14,585 bases of DNA, taken from UHGV virus genome UHGV-0166592; one strand, written 5' to 3'. Below, one piece after another: positions 50-14,535 of this stretch. Source of the stretch: a virus. The position numbers and the translations under genes were made by a program. Within the stretch, counting starts at the first letter, position 1. Each line of letters begins with the position of its first letter. Under the pieces are notes generated by a model. That model was not told where the DNA came from. It did no database searches and saw nothing but the letters and a program-made list of their open reading frames with translations.

Positions 50-916
50 TTACTCACCCTGTGGATCATGATATTCAACGCACGCCTGTAGCGTGTTTTC
101 AATCAGCGTGGCAACCGTCATCGGGCCAACGCCGCCCGGAACAGGCGTAATGTATGAGGCGCGTTTAGCCGCGTCTTCAAACACGACGTCGCCCACAACT
201 TTGCCATTTTCCAGACGGTTGATGCCGACATCAATCACAATTGCGCCTTCTTTGATCCAGTCACCAGGAATAAAGCCCGGCTTGCCGACGGCAACGATCA
301 GTAGATCGGCATTTTCTACGTGGTGACGCAGATTTTTAGTGAAACGGTGGGTCACGGTAGTGGTGCAACCTGCCAGCAGCAGTTCCATGCTCATTGGGCG
401 ACCGACGATATTCGATGCGCCAATCACCACGGCGTTAAGGCCAAAGGTATCAATGTTGTAACGCTCAAGCAGCGTGACGATACCGCGCGGGGTGCAGGGA
501 CGCAGACGTGGCGCGCGCTGGCACAGGCGACCGACGTTGTAAGGATGGAAACCGTCCACGTCTTTGTCCGGATGAATACGTTCCAGCACTTTGACGTTAT
601 CAATACCCGCCGGTAACGGCAGTTGAACCAGAATGCCATCAATGGTGTTGTCGGCATTCAGCGCATCGATAAGCTCCAGCAGCTCCGCTTCGCTGGTGGT
701 TTCCGGGAGGTCATAAGAGCGGGAGACGAACCCGACTTCTTCACAAGCCTTGCGTTTGCTTGCGACATAAATTTGCGATGCAGGGTTGCTACCCACCAGC
801 ACAACGGCCAGTCCTGGCGCCCGCAGTCCGGCTGCAATACGCGCCTGAACTTTTTGAGCAACTTCAGAGCGCACCTGCTGCGCAATCGTTTTACCGTCAA
901 TAATCTTTGCTGCCAT
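50..916 (-). CDS. folD: Bifunctional 5,10-methylene-tetrahydrofolate dehydrogenase / 5,10-methenyl-tetrahydrofolate cyclohydrolase FolD
   Basis: 288-aa ORF, ATG at 916..914, TAA at 52..50. The translation ([19 protein letters not shown] ... [16 protein letters not shown]) matches my recollection of E. coli FolD almost residue for residue. Confidence 0.95.
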
Positions 917-1186: not shown

Positions 1187-1263
1187 GCGCCCTTAGCTCA
1201 GTTGGATAGAGCAACGACCTTCTAAGTCGTGGGCCGCAGGTTCGAATCCTGCAGGGCGCGCCA
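1187..1263 (+). tRNA. argU: tRNA-Arg (anticodon UCU)
   Basis: 77-nt sequence GCGCCCTTAGCTCAGTTGGATAGAGCAACGACCTTCTAAGTCGTGGGCCGCAGGTTCGAATCCTGCAGGGCGCGCCA. It has a cloverleaf-compatible acceptor stem, a TCT anticodon in the CTTCTAA loop, a GGTTCGAATCC T-arm and encoded CCA. I recall argU as a lambdoid (DLP12-type) integration site. Confidence 0.95.
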
Positions 1264-1278
1264 TTACAATTCAATCAG

Positions 1279-2442
1279 TTACGCCTTCTTTATATCCTCC
1301 ATAATTCCAGAGTGGGACATATTTGGGACATTATCACCAAAAATGTCGTCTATTTTCCTCGCATGCTCTGTCAAATGATTAGGCGCAAGGTGAGCATACC
1401 TACGAACCATTTCTATGGACTCCCATCCGCCCATTTCCTGAAGCACTGATAATGGGACGCCTGACTGAATCAGCCAGCTTGCCCAGGTGTGTCTGAGGTC
1501 ATGGAAACGGAAATCTTCAATTCCTGCACGACGACAAGCTGATAGCCATGATGTCTTGCTGTCGATGCGCATCTTCCTGACCGCAGGCGTTGATGTTCCA
1601 TCTGCTCGCTTAGCCGCCTTGGTATGTACAAACACCCATTTGTGATGCTTGCCTATTTGATCACGCAACACTTTACAGGCGGTATCGTTCAGCGCCACAC
1701 CAATGGCGCGGTTTGATTTGCTCTCTTCTGGATTCACCCAGGCAACTCGTCGCTGCATGTCGATTTGTTGCCATTCCAGATTTATGATGTTCGACTTTCT
1801 CAGACCAGTTGCCAGCGCAAACTTGACGACAGATTTCAGTGGTTCGGGGCACTCATCAATAAGGCGTTTTGCTTCCTCCTTTTCCAGCCATCTGACTCGC
1901 TTGTTTCTGACCGCTGGTATCTTGATGACAGGCGCTTTTTCCAGCCACTTCCAGTCGCGTTCTGCAGCACGGAGAATGGCCTTTATCATGGCAAGATGCT
2001 TTGCCTTTGTCTGAGTTGATACTGGCTTTGGTTCATAAACAGGCGGTTCTTTACCTTTCCTGATGGCGGCCCGAACTTTCTGTTTCCATATTTCTTTCGT
2101 CTTTCTGTTATGCATTCTGCTTACAGCAGAGTAAATCTTTGCCTCCGAGATATCTTTAAGCCTTATACCCTCAAAATGTTCAAGCCAGAACTCAATCCGG
2201 CTTTTATCTGAATCGAGAGATTTTTTATCAGCCTTTTCCTCAAGCCATCTTAGGCAGGCCTCTTCAAAAGTGACATCAGGTAAATCCCCTAGCTTTTCTA
2301 CTCGCCAGAGTTCTGCTTTTCGCTTGTCGTGCAACTCCTGAGCTTGCCGCTTGTCCTTTGTGCCAAGAGATTCCTTAATTCGTTTCCCGCCCGGGAGCGA
2401 ATACGAGGCATACCATATTTCATTTCTGCGGAAGAGTGACAT
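1279..2442 (-). CDS. int: Tyrosine-type site-specific integrase (lambdoid, IntD-like)
   Basis: 387-aa ORF with the C-terminal catalytic region [39 protein letters not shown] (R..H..R..Y signature of tyrosine recombinases). The N-terminus [31 protein letters not shown] matches my recollection of DLP12 IntD. RBS GAGGAAAG precedes the ATG at 2442. Confidence 0.95.
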
Positions 2443-2669
2443 TTTCTTTCCTCTGTTATGCCATCACCCGCGCTCACCTGGACAGTATGCAGCGGAGACT
2501 GAAGAGCCGCAATGCAGGCTTGTCGTGTTGTGAGGTAAGGAGATTTATTCTTAGTGGGATCTTTACGTGTTGCCTGAAGACGCCCTGTGCGTATCCAGTT
2601 AATGGCAGTCGGTCTGGATATCTTGAGAAAATGACAGGCCTCATCGAGTGTGAGGCTGTATGGCTCCAT
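2298..2669 (-). CDS. xis: Excisionase-family DNA-binding protein (Xis/AlpA-like HTH)
   Basis: Start chosen at the internal ATG 2669..2667 ([37 protein letters not shown]...), preceded by GAGGTG and overlapping the upstream stop as TAATG. The reading frame has no stop until 2298, so it runs 145 bp into int in another frame; the true C-terminus is uncertain. Confidence 0.55.
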
Positions 2670-2974
2670 TATTTCACCTCTTGTTGTGACATTGTTGAAA
2701 AATGGATACCAGCTCGTTGCTGCCAGACGATCCAACCGAGAGTCATATCCCATGCCATGTATTCGTTATCGCCGTTTTTTGCTCTCCGACGATCTACTAA
2801 GTCACCGAAACGCTTTTCCATGAATAATTCATAAGCTTCGCGTTCATCTGGTTCTACTTCCAGAGATAGGAGTGCGATTTCATAAGCACGGCGCTCAATA
2901 TCGTCTCGCACGTCAAGGCTGCTGATACGCTCTTTAATTTCTTTAATCAGTTCTTTGTCGGTAAAAGTGGTCAT
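2669..2974 (-). CDS. YfdT-like prophage protein, function unknown
   Basis: 101-aa ORF, translationally coupled at both ends (TAATG overlaps). The length and position match my recollection of the CPS-53 yfdP-yfdT block (YfdT is 101 aa). Confidence 0.65.
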   Translation of the reverse strand: MTTFTDKELIKEIKERISSLDVRDDIERRAYEIALLSLEVEPDEREAYELFMEKRFGDLVDRRRAKNGDNEYMAWDMTLGWIVWQQRAGIHFSTMSQQEVK

Positions 2975-3336
2975 TATGCTCCAGCCTCCGGTGCTTTTGG
3001 CATTACTGCCCAGTGAGTGATATTGACGTTTTCAAGGTCCCCGACCTGAAATGTCCACTGCCATTCTCCGGTTTCTTTTTGTCCCCAGGTGTACCAGAGA
3101 GAACGCCAGCCAATCAGCCAGCCTTCTCCATTAGCATCAAATAACAGAACACTTTCATTTGCTGGCGGCAGTTCAGCTGACACTGGTATTACTTTGTTTT
3201 CCAGTGCTGTACATTTAGCTTCAAGCGCATCGAATTTACGTACCAGGTATTCAGCATCTGTTTCATTCACTTTCAGATCTCGCGGTACACATCTCCCACG
3301 AAGAAACCCTTCCATTTCGAAAACATTCATGCGCAT
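2974..3336 (-). CDS. YfdS-like protein (DUF551-like C-terminus)
   Basis: 120-aa ORF. The C-terminal ...NITHWAVMPKAPEA resembles the W-x-P-x-P end I associate with DUF551 phage proteins. Its start overlaps the stop of the upstream HD-domain gene. Confidence 0.65.
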   Translation of the reverse strand: MRMNVFEMEGFLRGRCVPRDLKVNETDAEYLVRKFDALEAKCTALENKVIPVSAELPPANESVLLFDANGEGWLIGWRSLWYTWGQKETGEWQWTFQVGDLENVNITHWAVMPKAPEAGA

Positions 3337-3863
3337 TTGCGTAACTCCGATAAATCGTTAAAACGTTCCATAAACATCCCGTAGGCATGACCCGGTGCCA
3401 GTGGAATCACGTTGAACATCTCTGTTGCCGGGATGCCTTCCAGTACAGGCCAGAAAGAGCCATCATCAAGCCCGAGATCGCGGCGTTCGGTTGCCAGCAT
3501 AATGAGATCGGCATATTTCACTGGCGTGCTCATAACAGGAGGTAACCCGTATTTCTCACGGATTACGGCGTCTATTTTTTCTTCCATACGTTTATAGTCA
3601 GGAAGAAGTCGTTTCAGTGGTGCGGGGATGTCCTGGCAATATGCTTCTGTTGCATCATGCATTAAAGCTTCAAAAGCAAATTCCTGCGGCACCAGCTGGC
3701 TGCAAAGAACCGCATGTTGGGCGACGCTGTAGAAGTGCGAAAGATGACCGGCAAAGCGACAGATATTTGAAAGGGAAACCGCGATATCGTTAATAACGAT
3801 GTCGTCTTTATTTATCCTGTCATAATAAAAATGCTTCCCGGAAAAAGTTTTAATAAATGACAT
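3327..3863 (-). CDS. yfdR: HD-domain phosphohydrolase, YfdR-like (5'-nucleotidase family)
   Basis: Start placed at ATG 3863..3861 (MSFIKTFSGKHFYYD...), which has RBS GGAGAA 5 nt upstream and gives 178 aa. The ORF-track start at 3890 is a GTG. Carries an HD-type metal-binding region (NICRFAGHLSHFYSVAQHAVL ... LMHDATEAY). Confidence 0.8.
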   Translation of the reverse strand: MSFIKTFSGKHFYYDRINKDDIVINDIAVSLSNICRFAGHLSHFYSVAQHAVLCSQLVPQEFAFEALMHDATEAYCQDIPAPLKRLLPDYKRMEEKIDAVIREKYGLPPVMSTPVKYADLIMLATERRDLGLDDGSFWPVLEGIPATEMFNVIPLAPGHAYGMFMERFNDLSELRKCA

Positions 3864-3956
3864 TTTGTTCTCCACGTATATGCACTGCACCGCGCTGAAT
3901 TCTGGTAAAAGGAAGCCCTAACCATCCGGTGATTATTGAGTTAATTACGTTTCCAT

Positions 3957-3978
3957 AAATGCCCCCGCAGGGGCATTT
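3957..3978. repeat. Perfect 9-bp inverted repeat AAATGCCCC-CGCA-GGGGCATTT between the yfdQ-like and yfdR-like genes
   Basis: Arms 3957..3965 and 3970..3978 are exact reverse complements. No U-run follows on either strand, so it is not a classic intrinsic terminator. Confidence 0.6.
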
Positions 3979-3990
3979 GCAGTAATGAAA

Positions 3991-4815
3991 TCAGGCGGTG
4001 AAAGTACCAATAAAGGTTTCTACTTTGCTGTCTTTGAATTTCTCAACAAGCAGATCACGAAATTCGTTAGCCATTTCTTCCTGCACCGCTTCCAGCTGAA
4101 TAATGCGCAGAACCAGTACAGGACGATCGCCAGTGATAATGCTGAGGCGTAATTTAAACGGACGTTCTTTCAGACCTTCAAACGGAACGCATTTAAATTC
4201 AAATGCCACTGGCATAATGTCTTTGGTCTTCGCTTCGACAGACTCCATCAGGGAGCGTTTGCCGCTGAAGTCATTATCTTCAAAATCAGCGGTCTGGTTT
4301 GCTTCAATCGTGATTTTACGGACTGCCGCAGCCGCTTTTGTTGCTTGAATGGCGTCACCATTAGCATCAAAGCCCACAAGGTAGTCGGCCCAGTCTTCGA
4401 TCCATTCTGCCAGTGACTTCTGGGAGTTACGCTCGCCGTTAACAGACAACAGAGCAGAGAACGGTGCTGTCTTTTTCAGTTTGAGAGTGGCAGTGTTATC
4501 TGCGTGACCTGGTTCATCAATAGTACCCAGGTTAAGCACACTGACGGCTCGCATATTATCGGCATCGATAAAGCAGCGGGTGCCTTCATCTGCAAGATCT
4601 TTAGAATAACGGGTAAAGTCATCGATGCTGGCAGTGGAAAGCGCACCACGGAAACGGAAGCGATTTAAATTAAATTTTTCCAGATCATGAATGCGGAAAT
4701 TCTCAGGCAATGCCACAGCATCGGCACCAATCTTACTGATAATTTCATTAACACCCTGAGCAGAAATAAGGGCATGGATTTGATTAATTGCGGTTGCGTC
4801 TAAGTTCTGAGACAT
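3991..4815 (-). CDS. yfdQ: YfdQ-like protein (DUF2303-type), function unknown
   Basis: 274-aa ORF with RBS GAGGA 7 nt upstream of ATG 4815; the length and translation fit my recollection of CPS-53 YfdQ. Confidence 0.75.
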
Positions 4816-4880
4816 AATAAGTCCTCACTATATAAAGATATTCAGTGATGAGATAAATAATCAGTTTATTAAGAACGATA

Positions 4881-5243
4881 TTAATGACCTGCTGCGCGTA
4901 GTTTTCCGTCAGGTTCACCGGCAAGAGTCAGTAATTGTCCCTGGTCTTCCTGCAGAATAGTCAGGCGACCACCGCGATTGACATACATCGGCGTTTCGGT
5001 GGTGTCTTCTTCGGAAATTTTCCCGCGGTTAGTTGGGCGAACATATGAGAGTTTGTGTTTGATTTTCACACGGTTCTCATCAAACGGTTCGATTTCCAGA
5101 TTGAGTGAGACCTTCCCTTTGGTTTTCGTGTTCATCACACCGGAAGCGACCTCACTGAGAACTGCGCCGATTTTGGTTTCAAATACGCCGCCGTCCAGCT
5201 CCCCGATAAATGCCTGCACATCAGTACTGCGTTCGCTAGCCAT
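4881..5243 (-). CDS. YfdP-like protein, function unknown
   Basis: Start placed at ATG 5243..5241 (MASERSTDVQAFIGELDGG...), which has a strong RBS GAGGAG 6 nt upstream and gives 120 aa. The upstream extension of the ORF track to 5408 lacks an RBS. Confidence 0.65.
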   Translation of the reverse strand: MASERSTDVQAFIGELDGGVFETKIGAVLSEVASGVMNTKTKGKVSLNLEIEPFDENRVKIKHKLSYVRPTNRGKISEEDTTETPMYVNRGGRLTILQEDQGQLLTLAGEPDGKLRAAGH

Positions 5244-5292
5244 TTTGCTGCTCCTCATCATATCGACCCTGCAAGGTCGGTTGGTTTCTCCA

Positions 5293-5379
5293 CAAAACAG
5301 AGAAGAACACCTGCGGTGGCAGCCGCCCGGATGGATTGGGTTATGAGCCCGTCGTCCGGTGATGCTCTTCTCTGTTTTG
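5293..5379. repeat. Long inverted repeat: 14-bp arms CAAAACAGAGAAGA / TCTTCTCTGTTTTG separated by 59 nt
   Basis: Arms 5293..5306 and 5366..5379 are exact reverse complements. It lies in the 5' leader of the yfdP-like gene on the minus strand. Confidence 0.75.
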
Positions 5380-5380
5380 C

Positions 5381-5432
5381 AAAAAAGGACGGTACCAGCC
5401 GGAAGCAAGGGTACAAACTGGTACCGCCAGGA
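5381..5432 (-). terminator. Candidate intrinsic terminator in the left-operon leader
   Basis: On the minus-strand RNA a 9-bp stem (CGGUACCAG / CUGGUACCG, arms 5418..5426 and 5390..5398, extendable to 11 bp with one G-U pair) is followed by UCC and then UUUUUU (complement of 5381..5386). The 19-nt loop is larger than typical. Confidence 0.4.
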
Positions 5433-5645
5433 CTACACACAGCATAAAGTTGTGGTGCCGGGTGCCTCCCGGTGCCTGGCGAAGGTTGCACACCAGGCGG
5501 GTGGGTATCCACAGAAGGTCGACTGTCAGCCTCAACCTTAACCCGCGTGCGCTGAGCCGCATTCACCACAACGCTAAGGATTCTCTCTGGTTGAAAATAC
5601 TTAGCTGTTATGTGCCTGCTTTTAGCCACATCAGGCGAGGTGGAC

Positions 5646-5697
5646 CTGGTTATTCCCCAACAACAAGGATTCGGTTAATCTGGTTATCCCCAACAAC
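5646..5697 (+). repeat. Two direct repeats CTGGTTAT(T)CCCCAACAAC upstream of the 144-aa gene
   Basis: Copies at 5646..5664 and 5680..5697 are identical except for one extra T and are 34 bp apart. They end 16 nt before the ATG at 5713 and are a candidate regulator-binding site. Confidence 0.6.
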
Positions 5698-5712
5698 GCA
5701 AAAGGAAAAGAA

Positions 5713-6147
5713 ATGTCCGGTAATATCTACACGCTGTACAAATCCCACTGTGAAAATGTTGGAAAGTATCGGGGCATTGAAATCAGTGGGGTAGTGTCAT
5801 CAGTCGAAATAAGCAAAGTGGAATCAAGGGCAACATTACTTACTCTTCTGGACCTTGTCTTACATGAGCACCGGAAGAAATTCGGTACTCCCTATAATCA
5901 GTTGAATGGGAAAAAGGCTCTGGTTCACCTTATTCTGATGAAGCATCACTGGATGCCAAAACAGATTAATGAGATGAAATTTGATGAACTTCTTCTTTCA
6001 ATTCAGGATGAACTCACACTTGATAAAATAAGCGTAACCGCCCAGAAATTTTTAGATTATCGAGACTGGAGATCACAAATTCATCACTTTGATGATTTTG
6101 ACGAAAATGAATGGGATCCTAATTTGTCTGCACAATATCTAAAGTAA
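5713..6147 (+). CDS. Hypothetical 144-aa protein; AT-rich cargo gene in reverse orientation
   Basis: 435-nt ORF in an AT-rich segment, with RBS AAAGGAAAAG before ATG 5713. A 144-codon ORF in AT-rich DNA is unlikely by chance. I recognise no family. Confidence 0.6.
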   Translation: MSGNIYTLYKSHCENVGKYRGIEISGVVSSVEISKVESRATLLTLLDLVLHEHRKKFGTPYNQLNGKKALVHLILMKHHWMPKQINEMKFDELLLSIQDELTLDKISVTAQKFLDYRDWRSQIHHFDDFDENEWDPNLSAQYLK

Positions 6148-6325
6148 CATCCTGTGATAAAACCGTGATTTCCTGATCCAGTTTTTTTAAGGAGTCTATT
6201 GTTTCCTGTCGATAAGACAGCACTTCACGAAGCTGGTTTATAGCTGCCAGCTTCTTTGTCATCCGCTCATAAATTTCCTCATCTGTGTAGCCAGGCGCGA
6301 CGATTTTGGGTTCTGTTTTGTGCAT
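6119..6325 (-). CDS. Hypothetical 68-aa protein; candidate first gene of the leftward early operon
   Basis: ATG 6325..6323 with RBS GAGGAG 7 nt upstream; codon usage looks E. coli-like. Its 3' end overlaps the 144-aa gene convergently by 29 nt. No arginine-rich motif, so it is not an obvious N homologue. Confidence 0.4.
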   Translation of the reverse strand: MHKTEPKIVAPGYTDEEIYERMTKKLAAINQLREVLSYRQETIDSLKKLDQEITVLSQDVTLDIVQTN

Positions 6326-6370
6326 TTCACATCTCCTCAAGTTATCAGTTACTTGTTGATGGGGACCAGA

Positions 6371-6383
6371 TTGTTAAAGAGCT
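6371..6383 (-). promoter_or_regulatory. boxA-like antitermination element (minus-strand RNA AGCUCUUUAACAA)
   Basis: The 12-mer GCTCTTTAACAA on the minus strand is identical to the rrn/consensus boxA core as I recall it (TGCTCTTTAACAA). It lies directly 3' of a hairpin and 45 nt upstream of the RBS of the 68-aa ORF. Confidence 0.45.
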
Positions 6384-6410
6384 AAGCGTCCTGTAGGGCG
6401 CTTTTTTGTT
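6384..6410 (+). terminator. Intrinsic terminator on the plus strand, downstream of the 144-aa gene
   Basis: Stem GCGTCC / GGGCGC (6386..6391 and 6396..6401, one G-U pair), loop TGTA, then TTTTTTGTT (6402..6410). The same hairpin on the minus-strand RNA sits immediately 5' of the boxA-like element. Confidence 0.6.
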
Positions 6411-6490
6411 GCTAACGAATCACCCTAGACTTTATATGCCCCAGGCGGCTACTTCGTGGGCGTCCTGCCTGTTCGTTATCTTTGATATAA

Positions 6491-6519
6491 AATCTAACTT
6501 AACTTAGTTATTATGGCAA
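6491..6519 (-). promoter_or_regulatory. Candidate pL-like promoter with overlapping operator-like palindrome
   Basis: On the minus strand: -35 TTGCCA (6519..6514), 17-nt spacer, -10 TAGATT (6496..6491). The near-palindrome CTAACTTAACTTAG (6494..6507) overlaps the spacer and -10 and resembles the OR palindrome at 7222..7235. Further CTTAG copies lie at 6539, 6552 and 6572. Confidence 0.35.
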
Positions 6520-6572
6520 GAGAAAACACCAAACTTTTCTTAGTTCGGTGCCTTAGTTAGAGAAGAGAGGTC

Positions 6573-7199
6573 TTAGAGTTCGTATTGAACTCCTTTGACT
6601 ACACCAATGATAAGGCAATTACCATTGATAGGGATGTTGGGATACCGAGGATTTAATGGCACTAAAAACTTTTGAGGGCCATCGATGACTAATTTTTTTA
6701 CTGTAGCTTCGTTTGTTCCATCAAGTCGAGCGATGACTATTTTTCCATGACGAGGTTCTGCATCTGGATCTACAATCACTGTTGCGCCTTCTGGTATTGT
6801 TGGGAGGCCATTAGGGTTAGTCATGGAGTCACCTTTAACCTCTAATGCAAATGAGTTATCACCAATCTTTAATGATGTATCTACCCACTTGTCCACTTCA
6901 CTAAACACTTCTGCTGCCCTGCACTCAGTAAACTGCCCAGCCTGAACCCACGATATTACAGGAACTCTGCGCATGTTTGTGACGAGTTTGCCTTCAAACT
7001 CAGCACCATAAAGAATGTAATCTATTGACGTATTGAAGAACTTCGCTAATTTCGAAAGTGCCTCCCCACCAGGGGTATTGATGTCTTTCTCCCAGTACCC
7101 CACAGCAACGTCGCTTACTCCACAAAATTTACCCAATTCTTTCTGGGACGTTCCGGTAACTCTTCTCAGAGCTTTTATACGCTGACCAACCGTTTCCAT
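6573..7199 (-). CDS. cI: CI-type prophage repressor (N-terminal XRE-family HTH, C-terminal S24 LexA-like peptidase)
   Basis: 208-aa ORF. The N-terminus (QRIKALRRVTGTSQKELGKFCGVSDVAVGYWE) is an HTH; the C-terminus has the S24 Ser/Lys dyad context (GDSMTNP ... TVKKLVIDG). It is divergent from the cro-like gene. Confidence 0.9.
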   Translation of the reverse strand: METVGQRIKALRRVTGTSQKELGKFCGVSDVAVGYWEKDINTPGGEALSKLAKFFNTSIDYILYGAEFEGKLVTNMRRVPVISWVQAGQFTECRAAEVFSEVDKWVDTSLKIGDNSFALEVKGDSMTNPNGLPTIPEGATVIVDPDAEPRHGKIVIARLDGTNEATVKKLVIDGPQKFLVPLNPRYPNIPINGNCLIIGVVKGVQYEL

Positions 7200-7296
7200 A
7201 GGAGCACCATTTCTTGAATTGCTAAGTAATCTTAGTTTTTATTGACCAAAGATAGATTTGTAATTAGCATCTAATAAAACTTAGTTTGGAGGGCGT
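7200..7296. promoter_or_regulatory. Divergent cI/cro control region (OR-like) with operator palindromes
   Basis: 97-bp AT-rich interval between the divergent cI and cro starts. It contains the inverted repeat CTAAG-TAAT-CTTAG (7222..7235), the palindrome AAACT-T-AGTTT (7277..7287) and a candidate -35 TTGACC (7242..7247). Exact pR/pRM positions are not resolved. Confidence 0.6.
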
Positions 7297-7497
7297 ATGA
7301 CAACTGACGATATCGAAAGCTACTTCGGCAGTATTGAGAAAGTTGCTGCTTTTTTCGGCATAACAACTGAAGCCGTTTATCAGTGGCGAAACCGTCCGGG
7401 CCAGTTAATTCCAAAAGGACGTGCAGCAGAAGCTGCATATAGAACTTGCGGACGGTTGCCATTTAAACCTGAGCTTTATGAAAAATCTAATGGATAA
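7297..7497 (+). CDS. cro: Cro-like small HTH regulator (YdaS-type)
   Basis: 66-aa ORF divergent from cI, with RBS GGAGGG before ATG 7297. HTH-like segment GSIEKVAAFFGITTEAVYQWRNR. Confidence 0.8.
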   Translation: MTTDDIESYFGSIEKVAAFFGITTEAVYQWRNRPGQLIPKGRAAEAAYRTCGRLPFKPELYEKSNG

Positions 7498-8086
7498 ATC
7501 GATTAACAGAAACCACAGAACGATGAGGCTAACCGTGGGTAAGCATCACTGGAAAGTAGAAAAACAGCCTGAGTGGTACGTGAAAGCTGTCAGAAAAACT
7601 ATCGCAGCGTTGCCGGGTGGTTACGCTGAAGCAGCTGACTGGCTGGATGTAACAGAAAACGCATTATTTAACCGCCTTCGTGCCGATGGCGATCAGATTT
7701 TCCCGCTGGGATGGGCAATGATTTTGCAACGTGCTGGTGGAACTCACTTCATTGCTGACGCTGTGGCGCAGTCTGCAAATGGCGTCTTTGTGTCTCTTCC
7801 TGACGTCGAGGATGTGGACAACGCCGATATTAACCAGCGCCTGCTGGAAGTCATTGAACAGATTGGCAGTTATTCCAGACAGATTCGTTCGGCAATCGAA
7901 GACGGTGTGGTGGAACCGCATGAGAAGACAGCAATTAACGACGAGCTGTATCTCTCAATTTCGAAGCTGCAGGAGCATGCAGCACTGGTCTACAAAATCT
8001 TTTGCGTTTCAGAAAGTAGTGACGCCCGCGAGTGTGCAGCTCCGGGCGCCGTGGCGTGTCGTGACTGTGGAGAAACTAACGCATGA
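7478..8086 (+). CDS. CII-like / YdaT-family early regulator (start uncertain)
   Basis: The ORF immediately follows and overlaps cro. Possible starts are 7421, 7478 and 7490; none has a strong RBS. Its position after cro and its size fit the phage CII/YdaT-type regulators as I recall them. Confidence 0.5.
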
Positions 8087-8421
8087 ACAGTTTAACAACA
8101 CACTACCGTCGCTCGCAACTGATTGCGCTTCCTGTACCGGGTGGAAAAGCGAAGGTGGAGTATTGCTATGCAGTTAATGTACCAGGTGACAGGGAAATTG
8201 TAACCCACAGCTTTGCTGAGTGGGCTGTGGGTGATTTCAACCGGCAGAAGGAGACAGTCCTTTGCGACAAGTTAACCGCTGGTTCAAAGATCACTACGGA
8301 GTGCCCGTCAGAGTCATTCGTTGGGAGCCGGAAACACAACGAGTTATCTACCTCCGCGAAGGCTATGAGCATGAGTGCTTCAGCCCGCTCGAACAGTTTC
8401 GTCGTAAATTCAGGGAAATAG
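8083..8421 (+). CDS. Hypothetical protein, frame 1 (overlaps a better-looking alternative frame in its 3' half)
   Basis: ATG 8083 overlaps the upstream stop (ATGA), with GGAG 10 nt upstream. The C-terminal third translates to low-complexity S/A-rich sequence, suggesting that part is not the genuine frame. Confidence 0.3.
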
Positions 8422-8441
8422 AGGTCGGTCATGAGCACTAA
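8262..8441 (+). CDS. Candidate small protein, DUF4222-like, non-ATG (TTG) start
   Basis: The frame-3 translation [58 protein letters not shown] looks protein-like. There is no in-frame ATG; TTG 8262 lies 8 nt after a strong RBS AAGGAGA (8248..8254). It ends TAA 8439..8441, overlapping the replication gene start. Confidence 0.3.
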
Positions 8442-9372
8442 ATTAACCGGCTATGTATGGGATGGTTGCGCTGCATCAGGCATGAAATTATCCAGCGTGG
8501 CAATTATGGCCCGCCTGGCTGATTTCAGTAATGACGAAGGTGTGTGCTGGCCATCAATTGAAACCATTGCCCGCCAGATTGGCGCGGGGATGAGTACCGT
8601 CAGAACGGCTATCGCACGGCTGGAAGCAGAAGGCTGGTTAACGCGTAAGGCGCGTCGCCAGGGTAACCGCAATGCGTCGAATGTTTATCAGCTTAACGTT
8701 GCGAAGCTTCAGGCAGCGGCATTTTCTCAACTGTCAGATTCTGACCCGTCAAAATCTGACGCATCAAAATCTGACCCGTCAAAATTTGATGCGTCGAAAT
8801 CTGGCAAAAAAGCGGGTTTTCACCCGTCAGAATCTGGTGGGGATCCGTCAGTAAAATCAAAACATGATCCGTCAGATAAAAAAACTTCTCGTCCGGACGC
8901 TTCGCAACCGGACACGCAGACGGCTGAACAGGATTTTTTAACTCGCCATCCTGATGCGGTTGTATTCAGCCCTAAAAAGCGCCAGTGGGGGACGCAGGAT
9001 GATTTGACCTGCGCACAGTGGCTCTGGAAAAAAATCATCGCCCTGTACGAGCATGCCGCCGAATGTGACGGCGAGGTGGTTCGTCCCAAAGAACCGAACT
9101 GGACAGCCTGGGCAAACGAAATTCGCCTGATGTGTGTGCAGGATGGTCGTACTCATAAACAAATCTGCGAGATGTACAGCCGCGTCAGTCGCGATCCGTT
9201 CTGGTGCCGTAACGTGCTCAGCCCGTCGAAGCTGCGGGAAAAATGGGATGAGCTTTCCCTGCGCTTATCGCCGTCCATCAGCACATACACAGAAAAACGC
9301 GAAGACCCGTATTTCAAATCCAGTTACGACAACGTGGACTACAGCCAGATCCCGGCAGGATTCAGGGGGTGA
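8431..9372 (+). CDS. Replication initiation protein (N-terminal winged HTH, C-terminal DnaT-like domain)
   Basis: 313-aa ORF with RBS GAGG 6 nt before ATG 8431. The N-terminus (VAIMARLADFSNDEGVCWPSIETIARQIGAGMSTVRTAIARLEAEGWL) is the wHTH of phage initiators; the C-terminus (TCAQWLWKKIIALYEHAAE...) resembles DnaT-type domains. The central linker is encoded by iteron-like repeats. Confidence 0.8.
   Translation: MSTKLTGYVWDGCAASGMKLSSVAIMARLADFSNDEGVCWPSIETIARQIGAGMSTVRTAIARLEAEGWLTRKARRQGNRNASNVYQLNVAKLQAAAFSQLSDSDPSKSDASKSDPSKFDASKSGKKAGFHPSESGGDPSVKSKHDPSDKKTSRPDASQPDTQTAEQDFLTRHPDAVVFSPKKRQWGTQDDLTCAQWLWKKIIALYEHAAECDGEVVRPKEPNWTAWANEIRLMCVQDGRTHKQICEMYSRVSRDPFWCRNVLSPSKLREKWDELSLRLSPSISTYTEKREDPYFKSSYDNVDYSQIPAGFRG
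8731..8885 (+). repeat. Iteron-like 15-bp repeats inside the replication gene; candidate origin
   Basis: Five tandem 15-bp units at 8731..8805 (e.g. CCGTCAAAATCTGAC, GCATCAAAATCTGAC, CCGTCAAAATTTGAT), then three spaced copies at 8824, 8845 and 8869, followed by an A-rich tract. Confidence 0.6.
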
Positions 9373-9374
9373 GC

Positions 9375-9863
9375 ATGAGTCTTTTGAATGAAGTTCAGAA
9401 ATTCATTGAAGCCCATCCGGGGTGTACTTCCGGAGACATTGCGGATGCTTTTGCAGGTTACTCACGACAGCGCGTTCTGCAGTCAGCAAGCAAGTTACGT
9501 CAGAGTGGGCGTGTGGCTCACCGTTGTGAAGGGGATACACGCAGACATTTCCCGCGCCTGACTGAGAGAGCGCAGGAGCCGGAACCACAACCAGTTCGTG
9601 AAACCAGACCTGTGCGCAATTTCTATGTCGGCACTAACGATCCACGGGTGATTTTGTGCCTGACCCGCCAGGCTGAAGAACTGGAGTCCAGGGGCCTATA
9701 CCGTCGTGCTGCAACGGTGTGGATGGCGGCATTCCGTGAAAGCCACTCCCAGCCAGAACGAAACAATTTTCTGGCGCGTCGTGAGCAGTGCTTACAGAAA
9801 AGCAGCAAGCGCGCTGCATCGGGTGAAGAGTGGTATCTGTCAGGGAATTACGTGGGGGCTTAA
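9375..9863 (+). CDS. PerC-like transcriptional regulator
   Basis: Start placed at ATG 9375 (GTG 9369 is possible). The segment AEELESRGLYRRAATVWMAAFRESHSQPERNNFLARREQCL resembles the PerC/Pch motif as I recall it. Its stop overlaps the next start as TAATG. Confidence 0.5.
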   Translation: MSLLNEVQKFIEAHPGCTSGDIADAFAGYSRQRVLQSASKLRQSGRVAHRCEGDTRRHFPRLTERAQEPEPQPVRETRPVRNFYVGTNDPRVILCLTRQAEELESRGLYRRAATVWMAAFRESHSQPERNNFLARREQCLQKSSKRAASGEEWYLSGNYVGA

Positions 9864-10516
9864 TGAGTAATAAATATTGCCAGGCGCTGGTGGAACTGCG
9901 GAACAAACCAGCCCATGAACTGAAGGAAGTGGGCGATCAGTGGCGCACGCCGGACAACATTTTCTGGGGAATTAACACCCTGTTTGGCCCGTTTGTTCTG
10001 GATCTGTTCACTGACGGTGATAACGCCAAATGTGCTGCGTATTACACGGCGGAAGACAACGCGCTGGCGCATGACTGGTCAGAACGTCTTGCGGAGCTAA
10101 AAGGTGCTGCCTTTGGTAATCCCCCATACAGCCGCGCCAGTCAGCATGAGGGGCAATACATCACCGGCATGCGTTACATCATGAAACATGCCAGTGCCAT
10201 GCGTGATAAGGGCGGGCGCTATGTTTTCCTGATCAAAGCTGCCACCAGCGAAGTGTGGTGGCCGGAAGATGCAGATCATATTGCTTTTATTCGCGGGCGT
10301 ATTGGTTTTGAACTGCCTGCCTGGTTTATCCCGAAGGATGAGAAGCAGGTGCCGACAGGCGCTTTCTTCGCTGGTGCTATTGCTGTTTTCGACAAGACCT
10401 GGAAGGGACCGGCAATCAGCTACATCGGGCGCGATGAACTTGAGGCATGTGGTGAGGCGTTTCTGGAGCAGGTTCGTCAGCAGGCGGAAAAACTGGTCAG
10501 GGAGATGGCGGCATGA
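9863..10516 (+). CDS. Phage Dam-type DNA N6-adenine methyltransferase
   Basis: Start at ATG 9863 (MSNKYCQALVELRNK...). Contains the catalytic NPPY motif (AFGNPPYSR) and an upstream WRTPD segment typical of phage Dam-family enzymes. Confidence 0.85.
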   Translation: MSNKYCQALVELRNKPAHELKEVGDQWRTPDNIFWGINTLFGPFVLDLFTDGDNAKCAAYYTAEDNALAHDWSERLAELKGAAFGNPPYSRASQHEGQYITGMRYIMKHASAMRDKGGRYVFLIKAATSEVWWPEDADHIAFIRGRIGFELPAWFIPKDEKQVPTGAFFAGAIAVFDKTWKGPAISYIGRDELEACGEAFLEQVRQQAEKLVREMAA

Positions 10517-10839
10517 CGACGTTAACTCAATGCCAGCAGCAGGTGCTGGATATGCTGATTTCTTATCAGAAAGAACGTGGTTTCCCGCCAACCAATCAGG
10601 AGGTGGCAACCATGCTGGGATACCGTTCGGTGAATGCAGCGGTGGAGCATCTTCGTGCGCTGGAGAAAAAAGGCGTCATCACGATAAAGCGTGGCGTGGC
10701 CCGGGGGATAACGCTTCATACCGCGGTGAAGGACGACGACAGCGAGGCGGTCGGGATTATCCGCTCACTGCTTGCCGGTGAGGAAAACGCCAGGCTGCGT
10801 GCAGCCCACTGGTTACATGAGAGGGGCCTGAAAGTATGA
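10513..10839 (+). CDS. LexA N-terminal-like winged-helix DNA-binding protein
   Basis: 108-aa ORF; QQQVLDMLISYQKERGFPPTNQEVATMLGYRSVNAAVEHLRALEKKGVI resembles the LexA DNA-binding domain, with no peptidase domain. ATGA overlap with the Dam stop. Confidence 0.6.
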   Translation: MTTLTQCQQQVLDMLISYQKERGFPPTNQEVATMLGYRSVNAAVEHLRALEKKGVITIKRGVARGITLHTAVKDDDSEAVGIIRSLLAGEENARLRAAHWLHERGLKV

Positions 10840-13097: not shown

Positions 13098-13850
13098 ATG
13101 AACCTTGAAGCCTTACCAAAATATTACTCCCCAAAATCTCCAAAATTGAGCGATGACGCACCGGCGACAGGCTCAGGTGGTTTAACGATTACGGATGTGA
13201 TGGCTGCGCAGGGGATGGTGCAGTCGAAAGCACCGCTTGGGTTTGCCTTATTCCTGGCAAAAGTTGGTGTTCAGGATCCTCAGTTTGCGATTGAAGGTCT
13301 GCTCAATTACGCGATGGCAATGGATAACCCGACATTGAACAAATTGAGTGAAGAAACCCGGTTACAGATCATCCCTTACCTTGTGAGTTTTGCCTTTGCT
13401 GATTATTCCAGGTCTGCGGCAAGTAAGGCTCGCTGTGAGCATTGTGCTGGTACTGGATTTCATAGTGTATTGCGCGAAGTGGTGAAACACTCCAGAAGCG
13501 GGGAATCTGTTATCAAGGAAGAGTGGGTGAAGGAATTATGTCAGCATTGCCATGGTAAGGGAGAAGTCAGCACGGCTTGCAGAGGGTGTAAGGGTAAAGG
13601 CATTGTCCTGGATGAAAAAAGAACCCGGCTTCATGGCGCGCCTGTTTATAAGATTTGTGGGCGTTGCAATGGAAACCGGTTTAGTCGTTTACCGACCACA
13701 CTGGCACGACGTCATGTCCAGAAGCTGGTACCAGACCTGACTGATTATCAGTGGTACAAAGGATATGCAGACGTCATTGATAAACTGGTAACAAAGTGCT
13801 GGCAGGAAGAAGCATTCGCTGAAGCACAATTGAGAAAGGTGACGAGATAA
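13098..13850 (+). CDS. Late-gene antitermination protein Q
   Basis: 250-aa ORF with RBS GGAG before ATG 13098. The N-terminus MNLEALPKYYSPKSPKLSDDAPATGSGGLTITDVMAAQGMVQSKAPLGFALF matches lambdoid Q proteins as I recall them; Cys-rich zinc-binding region CEHCAGTG ... CQHCHGKG ... CRGCKGKG. Confidence 0.85.
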   Translation: MNLEALPKYYSPKSPKLSDDAPATGSGGLTITDVMAAQGMVQSKAPLGFALFLAKVGVQDPQFAIEGLLNYAMAMDNPTLNKLSEETRLQIIPYLVSFAFADYSRSAASKARCEHCAGTGFHSVLREVVKHSRSGESVIKEEWVKELCQHCHGKGEVSTACRGCKGKGIVLDEKRTRLHGAPVYKICGRCNGNRFSRLPTTLARRHVQKLVPDLTDYQWYKGYADVIDKLVTKCWQEEAFAEAQLRKVTR

Positions 13851-14004: not shown

Positions 14005-14535
14005 ATGTTATACCGAGATCTTTTGCCTATTTTCTCAGAAAGACCCATATTTAAAGCTCCTGAGGCTGAAAGAATACTTCGTGAGCAATATTCTATCGCC
14101 GCCCCCACTCCTGTAATTCAGGAGATTTATTATGGATTGGCAGGTTATGACAGATTTCAGGAGCTTTATGGGGATCTTAATATTGACCAAATCGAATGGA
14201 AATTGATTGAACTTCCCACTAAAAATTTTTTAACTATCGGGGATAATGCTACTTACCCTGATTTTTTGCATGAGGTCGTTGAAGATTTCACAACCCGTAA
14301 AGGCGATGTATTTATGGATGATGAAATAAAAGCGCATTGGTGTAATTTTGGCACATGGTGTGAACCTCCATTTTTTATAGATCGAGCTTTGCTGAAAAGT
14401 AATACAACAGGGCTTCATTTAATGGAAGGGCATACAAGAGTTGGAACCCTGTTAGGGGCAGTTAAGTATAACTTCGTTAAGCTTGCTAATACTCATAAAA
14501 TTTATTATGCGCAAGCAAAAGAATGTATTAAATAA
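14005..14535 (+). CDS. Hypothetical 176-aa protein; AT-rich cargo gene downstream of Q/tR'
   Basis: ORF with RBS GGGGA 5 nt before ATG 14005 and TAA at 14533..14535. It is markedly more AT-rich than the flanking phage genes. I recognise no family. Confidence 0.65.
   Translation: MLYRDLLPIFSERPIFKAPEAERILREQYSIAAPTPVIQEIYYGLAGYDRFQELYGDLNIDQIEWKLIELPTKNFLTIGDNATYPDFLHEVVEDFTTRKGDVFMDDEIKAHWCNFGTWCEPPFFIDRALLKSNTTGLHLMEGHTRVGTLLGAVKYNFVKLANTHKIYYAQAKECIK

Follow-up and report, generated by a model that had tools for sequence, protein, structure and literature searches.

The closest described relatives of the locus analysed here are the yfdP to yfdT genes of prophage CPS-53 (KplE1) in Escherichia coli K-12, whose product YfdR binds DnaA in an interaction that needs Phe46 in domain I of DnaA (Noguchi and Katayama, Front Microbiol 2016; PMC4776307). 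The binding is direct, has been reproduced with purified protein, and engages the same surface of domain I that DiaA and DnaB use; in multicopy, yfdQ and yfdR together with either yfdS or yfdT are the minimal set that inhibits initiation at oriC in wild-type cells and over-initiating mutants alike (PMC4776307). Literature quoted in the same study places the affinity of YfdR for nucleotides much below that of YfbR, and its authors proposed that the genes had served an ancestral propagative phage, naming SfV as a carrier of YfdQRST homologues (PMC4776307). YfdR was later cited as a prophage-encoded rival of DnaB for DnaA domain I (PMC12122000), and yfd genes are common in lambdoid early-left operons, being typical of, though not restricted to, phages without a recognizable recombination module (PMC12315714). 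Here we examine a 14,585-nucleotide stretch of a viral genome, UHGV-0166592 (hereafter the window, meaning this whole stretch), in which a block of five yfd genes lies in an SfV/CPS-53-type lambdoid prophage integrated at argU. A prediction made earlier from the sequence alone (the original prediction) had put forward that K-12 YfdR interacts with DnaA and that overexpression of the block inhibits chromosomal initiation. The published work says so in both respects, except that the inhibition belongs to the minimal set named above and yfdP is dispensable for it (PMC4776307).

The original prediction had also described five consecutive minus-strand open reading frames (ORFs) of 120, 274, 178, 120 and 101 amino acids that match yfdP to yfdT in order and size. 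These lengths are exact when translation is taken to begin at ATG codons preceded by Shine-Dalgarno sequences, which gives 178 amino acids for yfdR (GGAG; the mechanical ORF from an upstream GTG has 187) and 120 for yfdP (GAGGAG; the mechanical ORF from a TTG has 175). The proposed alignment with K-12 supports the match fully. Against the CPS-53 reference region, taken from a complete O16:H48 genome, window positions 2613-5262 form one colinear blastn segment (2650 bp) with 97.3% nucleotide identity, and all five proteins align to their K-12 counterparts without insertions or deletions at 96.0-99.4% amino acid identity, YfdR differing by the single change R16K. The ratio of nonsynonymous to synonymous substitution (dN/dS) relative to K-12 is 0.02-0.13 per gene and most differences are synonymous, which indicates that all five genes are under purifying selection. 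On these alignments the match to the CPS-53 block is far beyond chance, and the identification of the five genes as yfdP-yfdT orthologues can be regarded as practically certain.

Comparison with K-12 further reveals how the CPS-53 copy of the block came to its present surroundings. Homology between the window and K-12 covers 2613-5262 and then 8664-10129, two colinear segments that abut each other in K-12, where the junction (L001 11593-11594) falls between CATCATA and ACCGCAAT. The 3.4 kb in between (5263-8663) are absent from K-12 as a clean deletion and comprise a leader RNA, a cassette, cI, cro, a cII-like gene and the O-like gene's 5' portion; a second K-12 truncation follows window position 10129, inside the Dam methylase gene. 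The O-like gene contains five to six iterons that are probably the phage origin (Table 1), and their 11-mer is identical to the 'SrsR box' (TCAGATTTTGA), of which four have been mapped between yfdO and yfdP in K-12 (PMC9181523). The strongest SrsR site in K-12 therefore appears to be a relic phage origin. The boxes adjoin yfdP in K-12 because of the 3.4-kb deletion, and since the iterons stand beside yfdP only through that deletion, the regulation of yfdPQ described in K-12 is not transferable to the argU prophage.

Table 1. Features of the window, with the yfd block first; positions are those of the whole stretch.
Feature	Position	Strand	Evidence and remarks
yfdP, 120 aa (amino acids)	4881-5243	-	99.2% aa identity to K-12; PHROG 204; precomputed Pfam PF27127 on homologues
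yfdQ, 274 aa, DUF2303	3991-4815	-	99.3% aa identity to K-12; PF10065 309.7 bits
yfdR, 178 aa, HD-domain phosphohydrolase	3327-3863	-	99.4% aa identity to K-12; PHROG 318
yfdS, 120 aa, DUF551 C-terminal domain	2974-3336	-	96.7% aa identity to K-12; PHROG 583, E 5e-82
yfdT, 101 aa, no known domain	2669-2974	-	96.0% aa identity to K-12; PHROG 660
9-bp GC-rich hairpin (AAATGCCCC-TGCG-GGGGCATTT)	3957-3978	-	read from the sequence; just past the yfdQ stop, in the yfdQ-yfdR spacer
STnc100-like structured RNA	5379-5602	-	RF02076 40.3 bits, E 6e-7, full-length match
Variable inserted cassette, low GC	5698-6365		144-aa ORF on + strand, 5713-6147 (PHROG 5286); 68-73-aa ORF on - strand, 6119-6340 (PHROG 1744)
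Candidate leftward promoter PL (TTGCCA-17-TAGATT)	6491-6519	-	promoter scan; just left of cI; contains operator-like CTAACTTAACTTAG at 6494-6507
CI-type repressor	6573-7199	-	HTH_3 and Peptidase_S24
cro	7297-7497		followed by a cII-like gene
O-like replication initiator	8431-9372	+	PHROG 391
Iterons TCAGATTTTGA (probable phage origin)	8734-8804		five to six copies, 15-bp period; inside the O-like gene 8431-9372
Excisionase-like helix-turn-helix gene (xis)	2298-2669	-	HTH_17; arrangement as in the annotated SfV xis
IntD/P22-type tyrosine integrase (int)	1279-2442	-	Phage_integrase 160 bits; annotated intD in related genomes
tRNA-Arg(UCU) argU	1187-1263	+	integration site (attL side); ARAGORN, Rfam
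Host folD	50-916	-	left end of window
Q antiterminator	13098-13850		window ends shortly past Q
Chi sites	7733, 9886, 11138, 12320, 12591 (+); 10242, 12720 (-); folD 692 (+), 793 (-)		

Within the block, the genes are joined to different degrees. The stop and start codons overlap as predicted between yfdR and yfdS (10 nucleotides), between yfdS and yfdT (1 nucleotide) and again between yfdT and xis (1 nucleotide), the xis ATG overlapping the yfdT stop (TAATG) and xis in turn overlapping int; yfdR through xis would thus be expected to be translationally coupled. The prediction does not extend to the upstream half, where spacers of 65 and 127 nucleotides separate yfdP from yfdQ and yfdQ from yfdR. 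The hairpin in the second spacer was not among the structures called by the terminator scan; it may serve as an attenuator or stabilize the mRNA.

The control region upstream has a lambdoid early-left organization, with a CI-type repressor adjoined by a leftward PL candidate that shares an operator-like motif with the rightward candidate promoter PR. A 14-bp motif, CTAAN5CTTAG, is found only at PL (6494-6507) and twice at PR between cI and cro (7222-7235 and 7271-7284), against 0.03 occurrences expected; these sites are probably CI/Cro operators, and because PL and PR share the motif, control of the leftward early transcript by cI is supported, with PL presumed to be an active promoter. The early-left operon posited by the original prediction is nevertheless not cleanly contiguous from PL, as a convergent gene and a small-RNA-like element with a terminator precede yfdP. 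The convergent gene is the 144-amino-acid ORF of the cassette, oriented against the left operon and located between PL and yfdP. The cassette ORFs have no Pfam or PADLOC match, and the closest genome carries a different gene at this position; by analogy with lambda rex/sieB, the slot could possibly house an exclusion or defence gene. Between the cassette and yfdP lies a 470-nucleotide stretch without a convincing gene, and the STnc100-like element falls in this part of the leader. At gathering thresholds Rfam returns only the tRNA in the window and the STnc100-like element appears only sub-threshold, its score lying below the RF02076 gathering score of 47, but it has a fold z-score of -3.56 and ends in a hairpin and U6 terminator. 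The same sub-threshold match occurs at the homologous place in SfV and ST64B, and there is one in Cronobacter phage phiES15 as well; since phiES15 is without yfdPQR, the RNA is a feature of the early-left leader rather than of the yfd block. STnc100 and the related RNA PasD have been described as prophage-encoded small RNAs. In a related genome the equivalent stretch bears the Prokaryotic Genome Annotation Pipeline label 'frameshifted hypothetical protein', probably because this RNA was mistaken for a coding gene. Domain and PHROG searches recognized no N-like antiterminator among the window proteins.

The HD phosphohydrolase signature ascribed to the YfdR-like protein by the original prediction is present, with residues H50, H69-D70, D78 and D119 in place and aligned with those of the solved HD-domain protein Atu1052 (2gz4, E 1.4e-13), and the protein matches, with E 2e-109, PHROG 318, which is annotated 'deoxyribonucleoside 5' monophosphate phosphatase'. 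Its scores remain under the curated cut-offs of the Pfam families YfbR-like (PF12917, 24.3 versus 25.9 bits) and HD_3 (PF13023, 17.0 versus 22.5 bits), and for the NCBIfam 5'-deoxynucleotidase equivalog NF003009 the score is 19.9 bits where the cut-off demands 122. As judged from these comparisons, YfdR is a member of the HD superfamily and not a YfbR equivalog, in agreement with the weak nucleotide affinity reported in PMC4776307, and it has probably kept a weak hydrolytic activity on (deoxy)nucleoside monophosphates.

The block is common in E. coli genomes and occurs in propagating phages, and its parts have different distributions. Matches to it were obtained in 3299 of the 5426 complete E. 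coli genomes, 1942 of which hold at least 80% of it, and among GenBank phages it is found at 97-98% nucleotide identity in SfV (orf28-32), SfIV, PhiR49_1, PhiR29 and Kati, with slightly shorter matches in fifteen Shiga toxin (Stx) 2c-converting phages, cdtI and 2H10. The composition of the block was counted at 80 IMG/VR loci obtained by a YfdQ alignment scan that returned only copies 99-100% identical, where YfdP accompanies YfdQ at all 80, YfdR at 77, a YfdS-like protein at 53 and a YfdT-like protein at 32, all five being present at 30. Distant gene neighbourhoods were drawn from a tblastn search of GenBank phages instead of from IMG/VR. There, a YfdP homologue (phmmer E 3e-19 to 7e-43) is encoded immediately upstream of a YfdQ homologue in Vibrio phage 34E29.1, Xanthomonas phage Tabio, Halomonas phage H4907 and Stx phage ArgO145, and YfdR, YfdS and YfdT are absent beside the pair in all four. 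YfdQ and YfdP occur in 184 and 180 GenBank phage records with nearly equal taxonomic profiles, whereas YfdR occurs in 337 with a different profile, mostly in phages of Bacillus, Caulobacter, Rhizobium, Pseudomonas and Stenotrophomonas, many of them large and virulent. In the distant phages the YfdP-YfdQ pair stands next to ssb, to a DnaQ-like exonuclease gene or to recT-exo-ssb, which hints at DNA metabolism. In terms of gene content, then, the block is an evolutionary mosaic rather than one unit: YfdP and YfdQ form a phage gene pair of wide conservation, YfdR is a phage HD enzyme with a distribution of its own that is much broader, and YfdS and YfdT are exchangeable, variable accessory genes. 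The single phage module envisaged by the original prediction is accordingly correct as to adjacency and orthology of the genes, but the set is not one evolutionary unit.

YfdQ matches PF10065 (DUF2303) over residues 7-272 with 309.7 bits against a gathering score of 26.6, and a homologue about 40% identical has been solved (PDB 9o7m, 'YfdQ Protein', 36 chains, E 1.2e-44). The solved protein is closest to the YfdQ homologue of a Xanthomonas phage, and our literature search found no paper describing the structure. The AlphaFold2 model of YfdQ, with a mean predicted local distance difference test (pLDDT) score of 79.9, gave no informative fold match and no similarity to Rad52, Red-beta, RecT, Erf, Sak4 or Gp2.5. 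The YfdP model was too poor for fold searching (pLDDT 64.7), and weak sequence matches of YfdP to a PARP14 macro domain (E about 0.2) were treated as chance. Residues 81-120 of YfdP (encoded from 4881 to 5003, minus strand) are among its most conserved (EEDTTETPMYVNRGG.LT) and yet are predicted to be disordered, with pLDDT below 50; a C-terminal segment of 40 residues that folds only on a partner, perhaps YfdQ, would fit this pattern. YfdS matches PF04448 (DUF551) marginally over residues 50-117 (22.1 bits versus a gathering score of 22). Homology between YfdS and YfdT, which would explain why either one suffices for inhibition, was considered and rejected, as BLASTP finds no similarity (E 0.31). 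PADLOC returned no anti-phage defence match for the five yfd proteins or the neighbouring inserted ORFs.

Taken together, we read the locus, with moderate confidence in the whole of this account, as the yfdP-yfdT early block of an argU SfV/CPS-53-type prophage with the following regulation and function. The block would be silent in the lysogen; upon induction, loss of CI would open PL, and the leftward early transcript would carry the yfd genes together with xis and int, provided that the STnc100-like terminator is passed. YfdR would then attach to domain I of DnaA at its Phe46 surface and, acting with YfdQ plus YfdS or YfdT, lower initiation at oriC, which would favour the phage iteron origin and its O-like initiator, and YfdR might act in addition as a weak (deoxy)nucleoside monophosphatase. 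The protein activities in this scheme are extrapolated from K-12 experiments on 96-99% identical proteins, and its timing and benefit to the phage are what we infer. Several observations weigh against it. The effect on DnaA was seen from multicopy expression only, and the authors concede a possible artefact; deletion of yfdQRST gave no initiation phenotype; and purified YfdR competes just 'moderately' with DiaA and DnaB (PMC4776307). Many virulent and jumbo phages that infect unrelated hosts have YfdR homologues, which points to nucleotide metabolism as the ancestral role. Finally, PL and yfdP are separated by a convergent gene and by a structure resembling an intrinsic terminator, and as no N-like antiterminator was recognized, co-transcription of the block from PL can only be presumed. 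That inhibition of host initiation, by analogy with the K-12 experiments, is the natural role of the block in phage growth is hence a tentative proposition, which we hold to be somewhat less probable than its opposite.

The alternative that survives best, although we consider it unlikely, is that YfdR is mainly a nucleotide-pool enzyme, a (deoxy)nucleoside monophosphate phosphatase like phage T5 Dmp or YfbR of the host, whose DnaA binding is incidental or confined to overexpression and whose neighbours are unrelated accessories. Such an enzyme would account for the retention of every HD metal and catalytic residue, for the annotation of PHROG 318 as a deoxyribonucleoside monophosphate (dNMP) phosphatase, for the 337 phage records that include jumbo and virulent phages of Bacillus, Caulobacter, Rhizobium and Pseudomonas, hosts with different DnaA proteins, and for a distribution decoupled from those of YfdP and YfdQ, as well as for the replication of yfdQRST deletion strains without a phenotype (PMC4776307). 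It sits poorly, however, with a nucleotide affinity much below that of YfbR (quoted in PMC4776307), with scores that miss the Pfam YfbR-like cut-off and fall far short of the NCBIfam equivalog cut-off, and with DnaA binding that is direct, Phe46-dependent and reproducible with purified protein (PMC4776307).

The early-replication reading can also be given a more specific form, which we regard as decidedly improbable. YfdP-YfdQ would be an ancient two-gene phage cassette that forms a large homo-oligomer (compare the 36 chains of PDB 9o7m) working on phage DNA during replication or recombination. Among enterobacterial lambdoid phages, those with a lone O-like initiator and without a Rec module would have had this cassette linked to the HD protein YfdR, which would strip DnaB and DiaA from DnaA, close down oriC and hand the host helicase to the phage origin. 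If this were true, the block would be a genuine host-takeover device and not an overexpression curiosity.

A further explanation, to which we give even less credence, is that YfdP and YfdQ, possibly with YfdR, provide an unrecognized recombination, repair or DNA-end protection function that replaces a Red/Erf-type module. The prophage has no recombination module (exo/bet/gam, erf/abc or recT) between cI and xis, RusA in the right arm being the only recombination gene, and the window contains nine Chi sites (GCTGGTGG) where 0.48 are expected from shuffles, seven of them in about 13 kb of prophage and two in folD; a Chi-rich, Rec-less prophage of this kind matches the 'no Rec module' lambdoid class of PMC12315714. 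The position of the pair beside ssb, DnaQ-like exonuclease or recT-exo-ssb genes in distant phages, the reported sensitivity of a yfdQ deletion to methyl methanesulfonate and H2O2 (PMC4776307) and the large assembly of 36 chains formed by the YfdQ homologue in PDB 9o7m point in the same direction. On the other hand, the pair co-occurs with a complete Rec module in ArgO145 (Tabio has the pair together with an ORF that is Erf-like by eye only), and the authors of PMC12315714 argue from such co-occurrence that a hidden recombinase is unlikely; the YfdQ model, moreover, resembles none of the recombinase folds compared above, and the YfdP model is of low confidence. The least probable explanation, that the block is cargo of benefit to the lysogen, expressed under stress to slow host replication or aid oxidative or acid stress instead of lytic growth, can draw on the raised H2O2 or acid sensitivity reported for CPS-53, yfdQ and yfdS deletions (PMC4776307), on the expression of yfdPQ in the K-12 lysogen under the host factor SrsR (PMC9181523) and on purifying selection on the block even in the defective K-12 prophage, but the K-12 SrsR sites are origin iterons moved next to yfdP by deletion, so that regulation through them cannot apply in the argU prophage, where the block follows a promoter with a cI-type operator and is linked with xis-int, as is typical of induced early genes.

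The prophage directly abuts folD and argU, and its genes run from the left as int, xis and yfdT-S-R-Q-P. Every early gene visible in the window is intact; as the window ends just after Q, the 'apparently intact prophage' of the original prediction can be judged for the early region alone. The closest complete genome carries a full-length lambdoid prophage at the identical folD-argU site. The O-like initiator, which in PHROG has partial matches of DnaD-like and primosomal type, is the sole replication gene seen, and it is followed in the window by no P-, DnaC- or DnaB-like gene; the phage may depend on host helicase loading. To its right lie PerC-like, Dam, LexA-DNA-binding-domain-like, RusA, KilA-N and DUF968 genes. 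The LexA-like protein (108 amino acids, 10513-10839, plus strand) consists of a LexA-type DNA-binding domain alone (PF01726, 69 bits) without the S24 self-cleavage domain and is conserved in SfV (orf42); from its domain content it could be a non-cleavable LexA mimic. Directly 3' of Q, an ORF of 176 amino acids (14005-14535, plus strand, GC 0.38) matches PHROG 8867 and has no Pfam or PADLOC match; the slot that it occupies is the one where Stx and other cargo genes lie in related phages.

The genes and the order in which they lie, the HD domain, the interaction with DnaA, the presence of the block in functional phages such as SfV and its early-left prevalence are already published or annotated, and the idea of a phage device directed against host replication is not new either, having been proposed by Noguchi and Katayama (PMC4776307). 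The value of the window is contextual. It preserves the arrangement, still without the deletion, that gave rise to the CPS-53 remnant of K-12, and by this comparison the regulatory setting of K-12 yfdPQ, with its SrsR boxes, appears as a phage origin juxtaposed through deletion. An inducible prophage of this kind, such as SfV, would be the right system for asking about YfdR-DnaA antagonism in phage development.

Among known systems, K-12 CPS-53 is the nearest, with the same five genes in the same order and orientation and with the same lengths and spacers, but there the loss of 5263-8663 has cut the block off from PL and brought it against the origin iterons, and CPS-53 uses IntS/TorI at argW whereas the window prophage uses an IntD-type integrase at argU. 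SfV, SfIV, PhiR49_1, the Stx2c phages, cdtI and 2H10 are propagating temperate phages that likewise hold the block between xis-int and the cI region; they differ in the region from yfdP to cI, in immunity genes and in virion modules, SfV having Mu-like tail genes and the closest relative of the window prophage lambda-like ones. The ST64B genes sb35-sb37 and gp37-39 of phage LLS form a P-Q-R trio in the early-left operon of lambdoid phages without recognizable recombination genes, and in ST64B an STnc100-like RNA also lies upstream of the trio, yet the nucleotide identity of ST64B to the window is only about 66-77% and other genes follow sb35. At the level of function, YfdR resembles lambda P, Bacillus subtilis SirA, host DiaA/HobA and Dps in binding DnaA and lowering initiation, and the part of domain I that SirA and DiaA contact is the one used by YfdR (Phe46 in E. 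coli, Phe49 in B. subtilis) (PMC4776307); these proteins have no sequence or fold in common with YfdR, and lambda P binds DnaA domain III. With YfbR and the phage T5 Dmp-type dNMP phosphatases, in turn, YfdR shares the HD metal-binding motif, the overall domain and the database naming, and it differs from YfbR in falling below the family cut-offs and in its much weaker reported affinity for nucleotides (PMC4776307).

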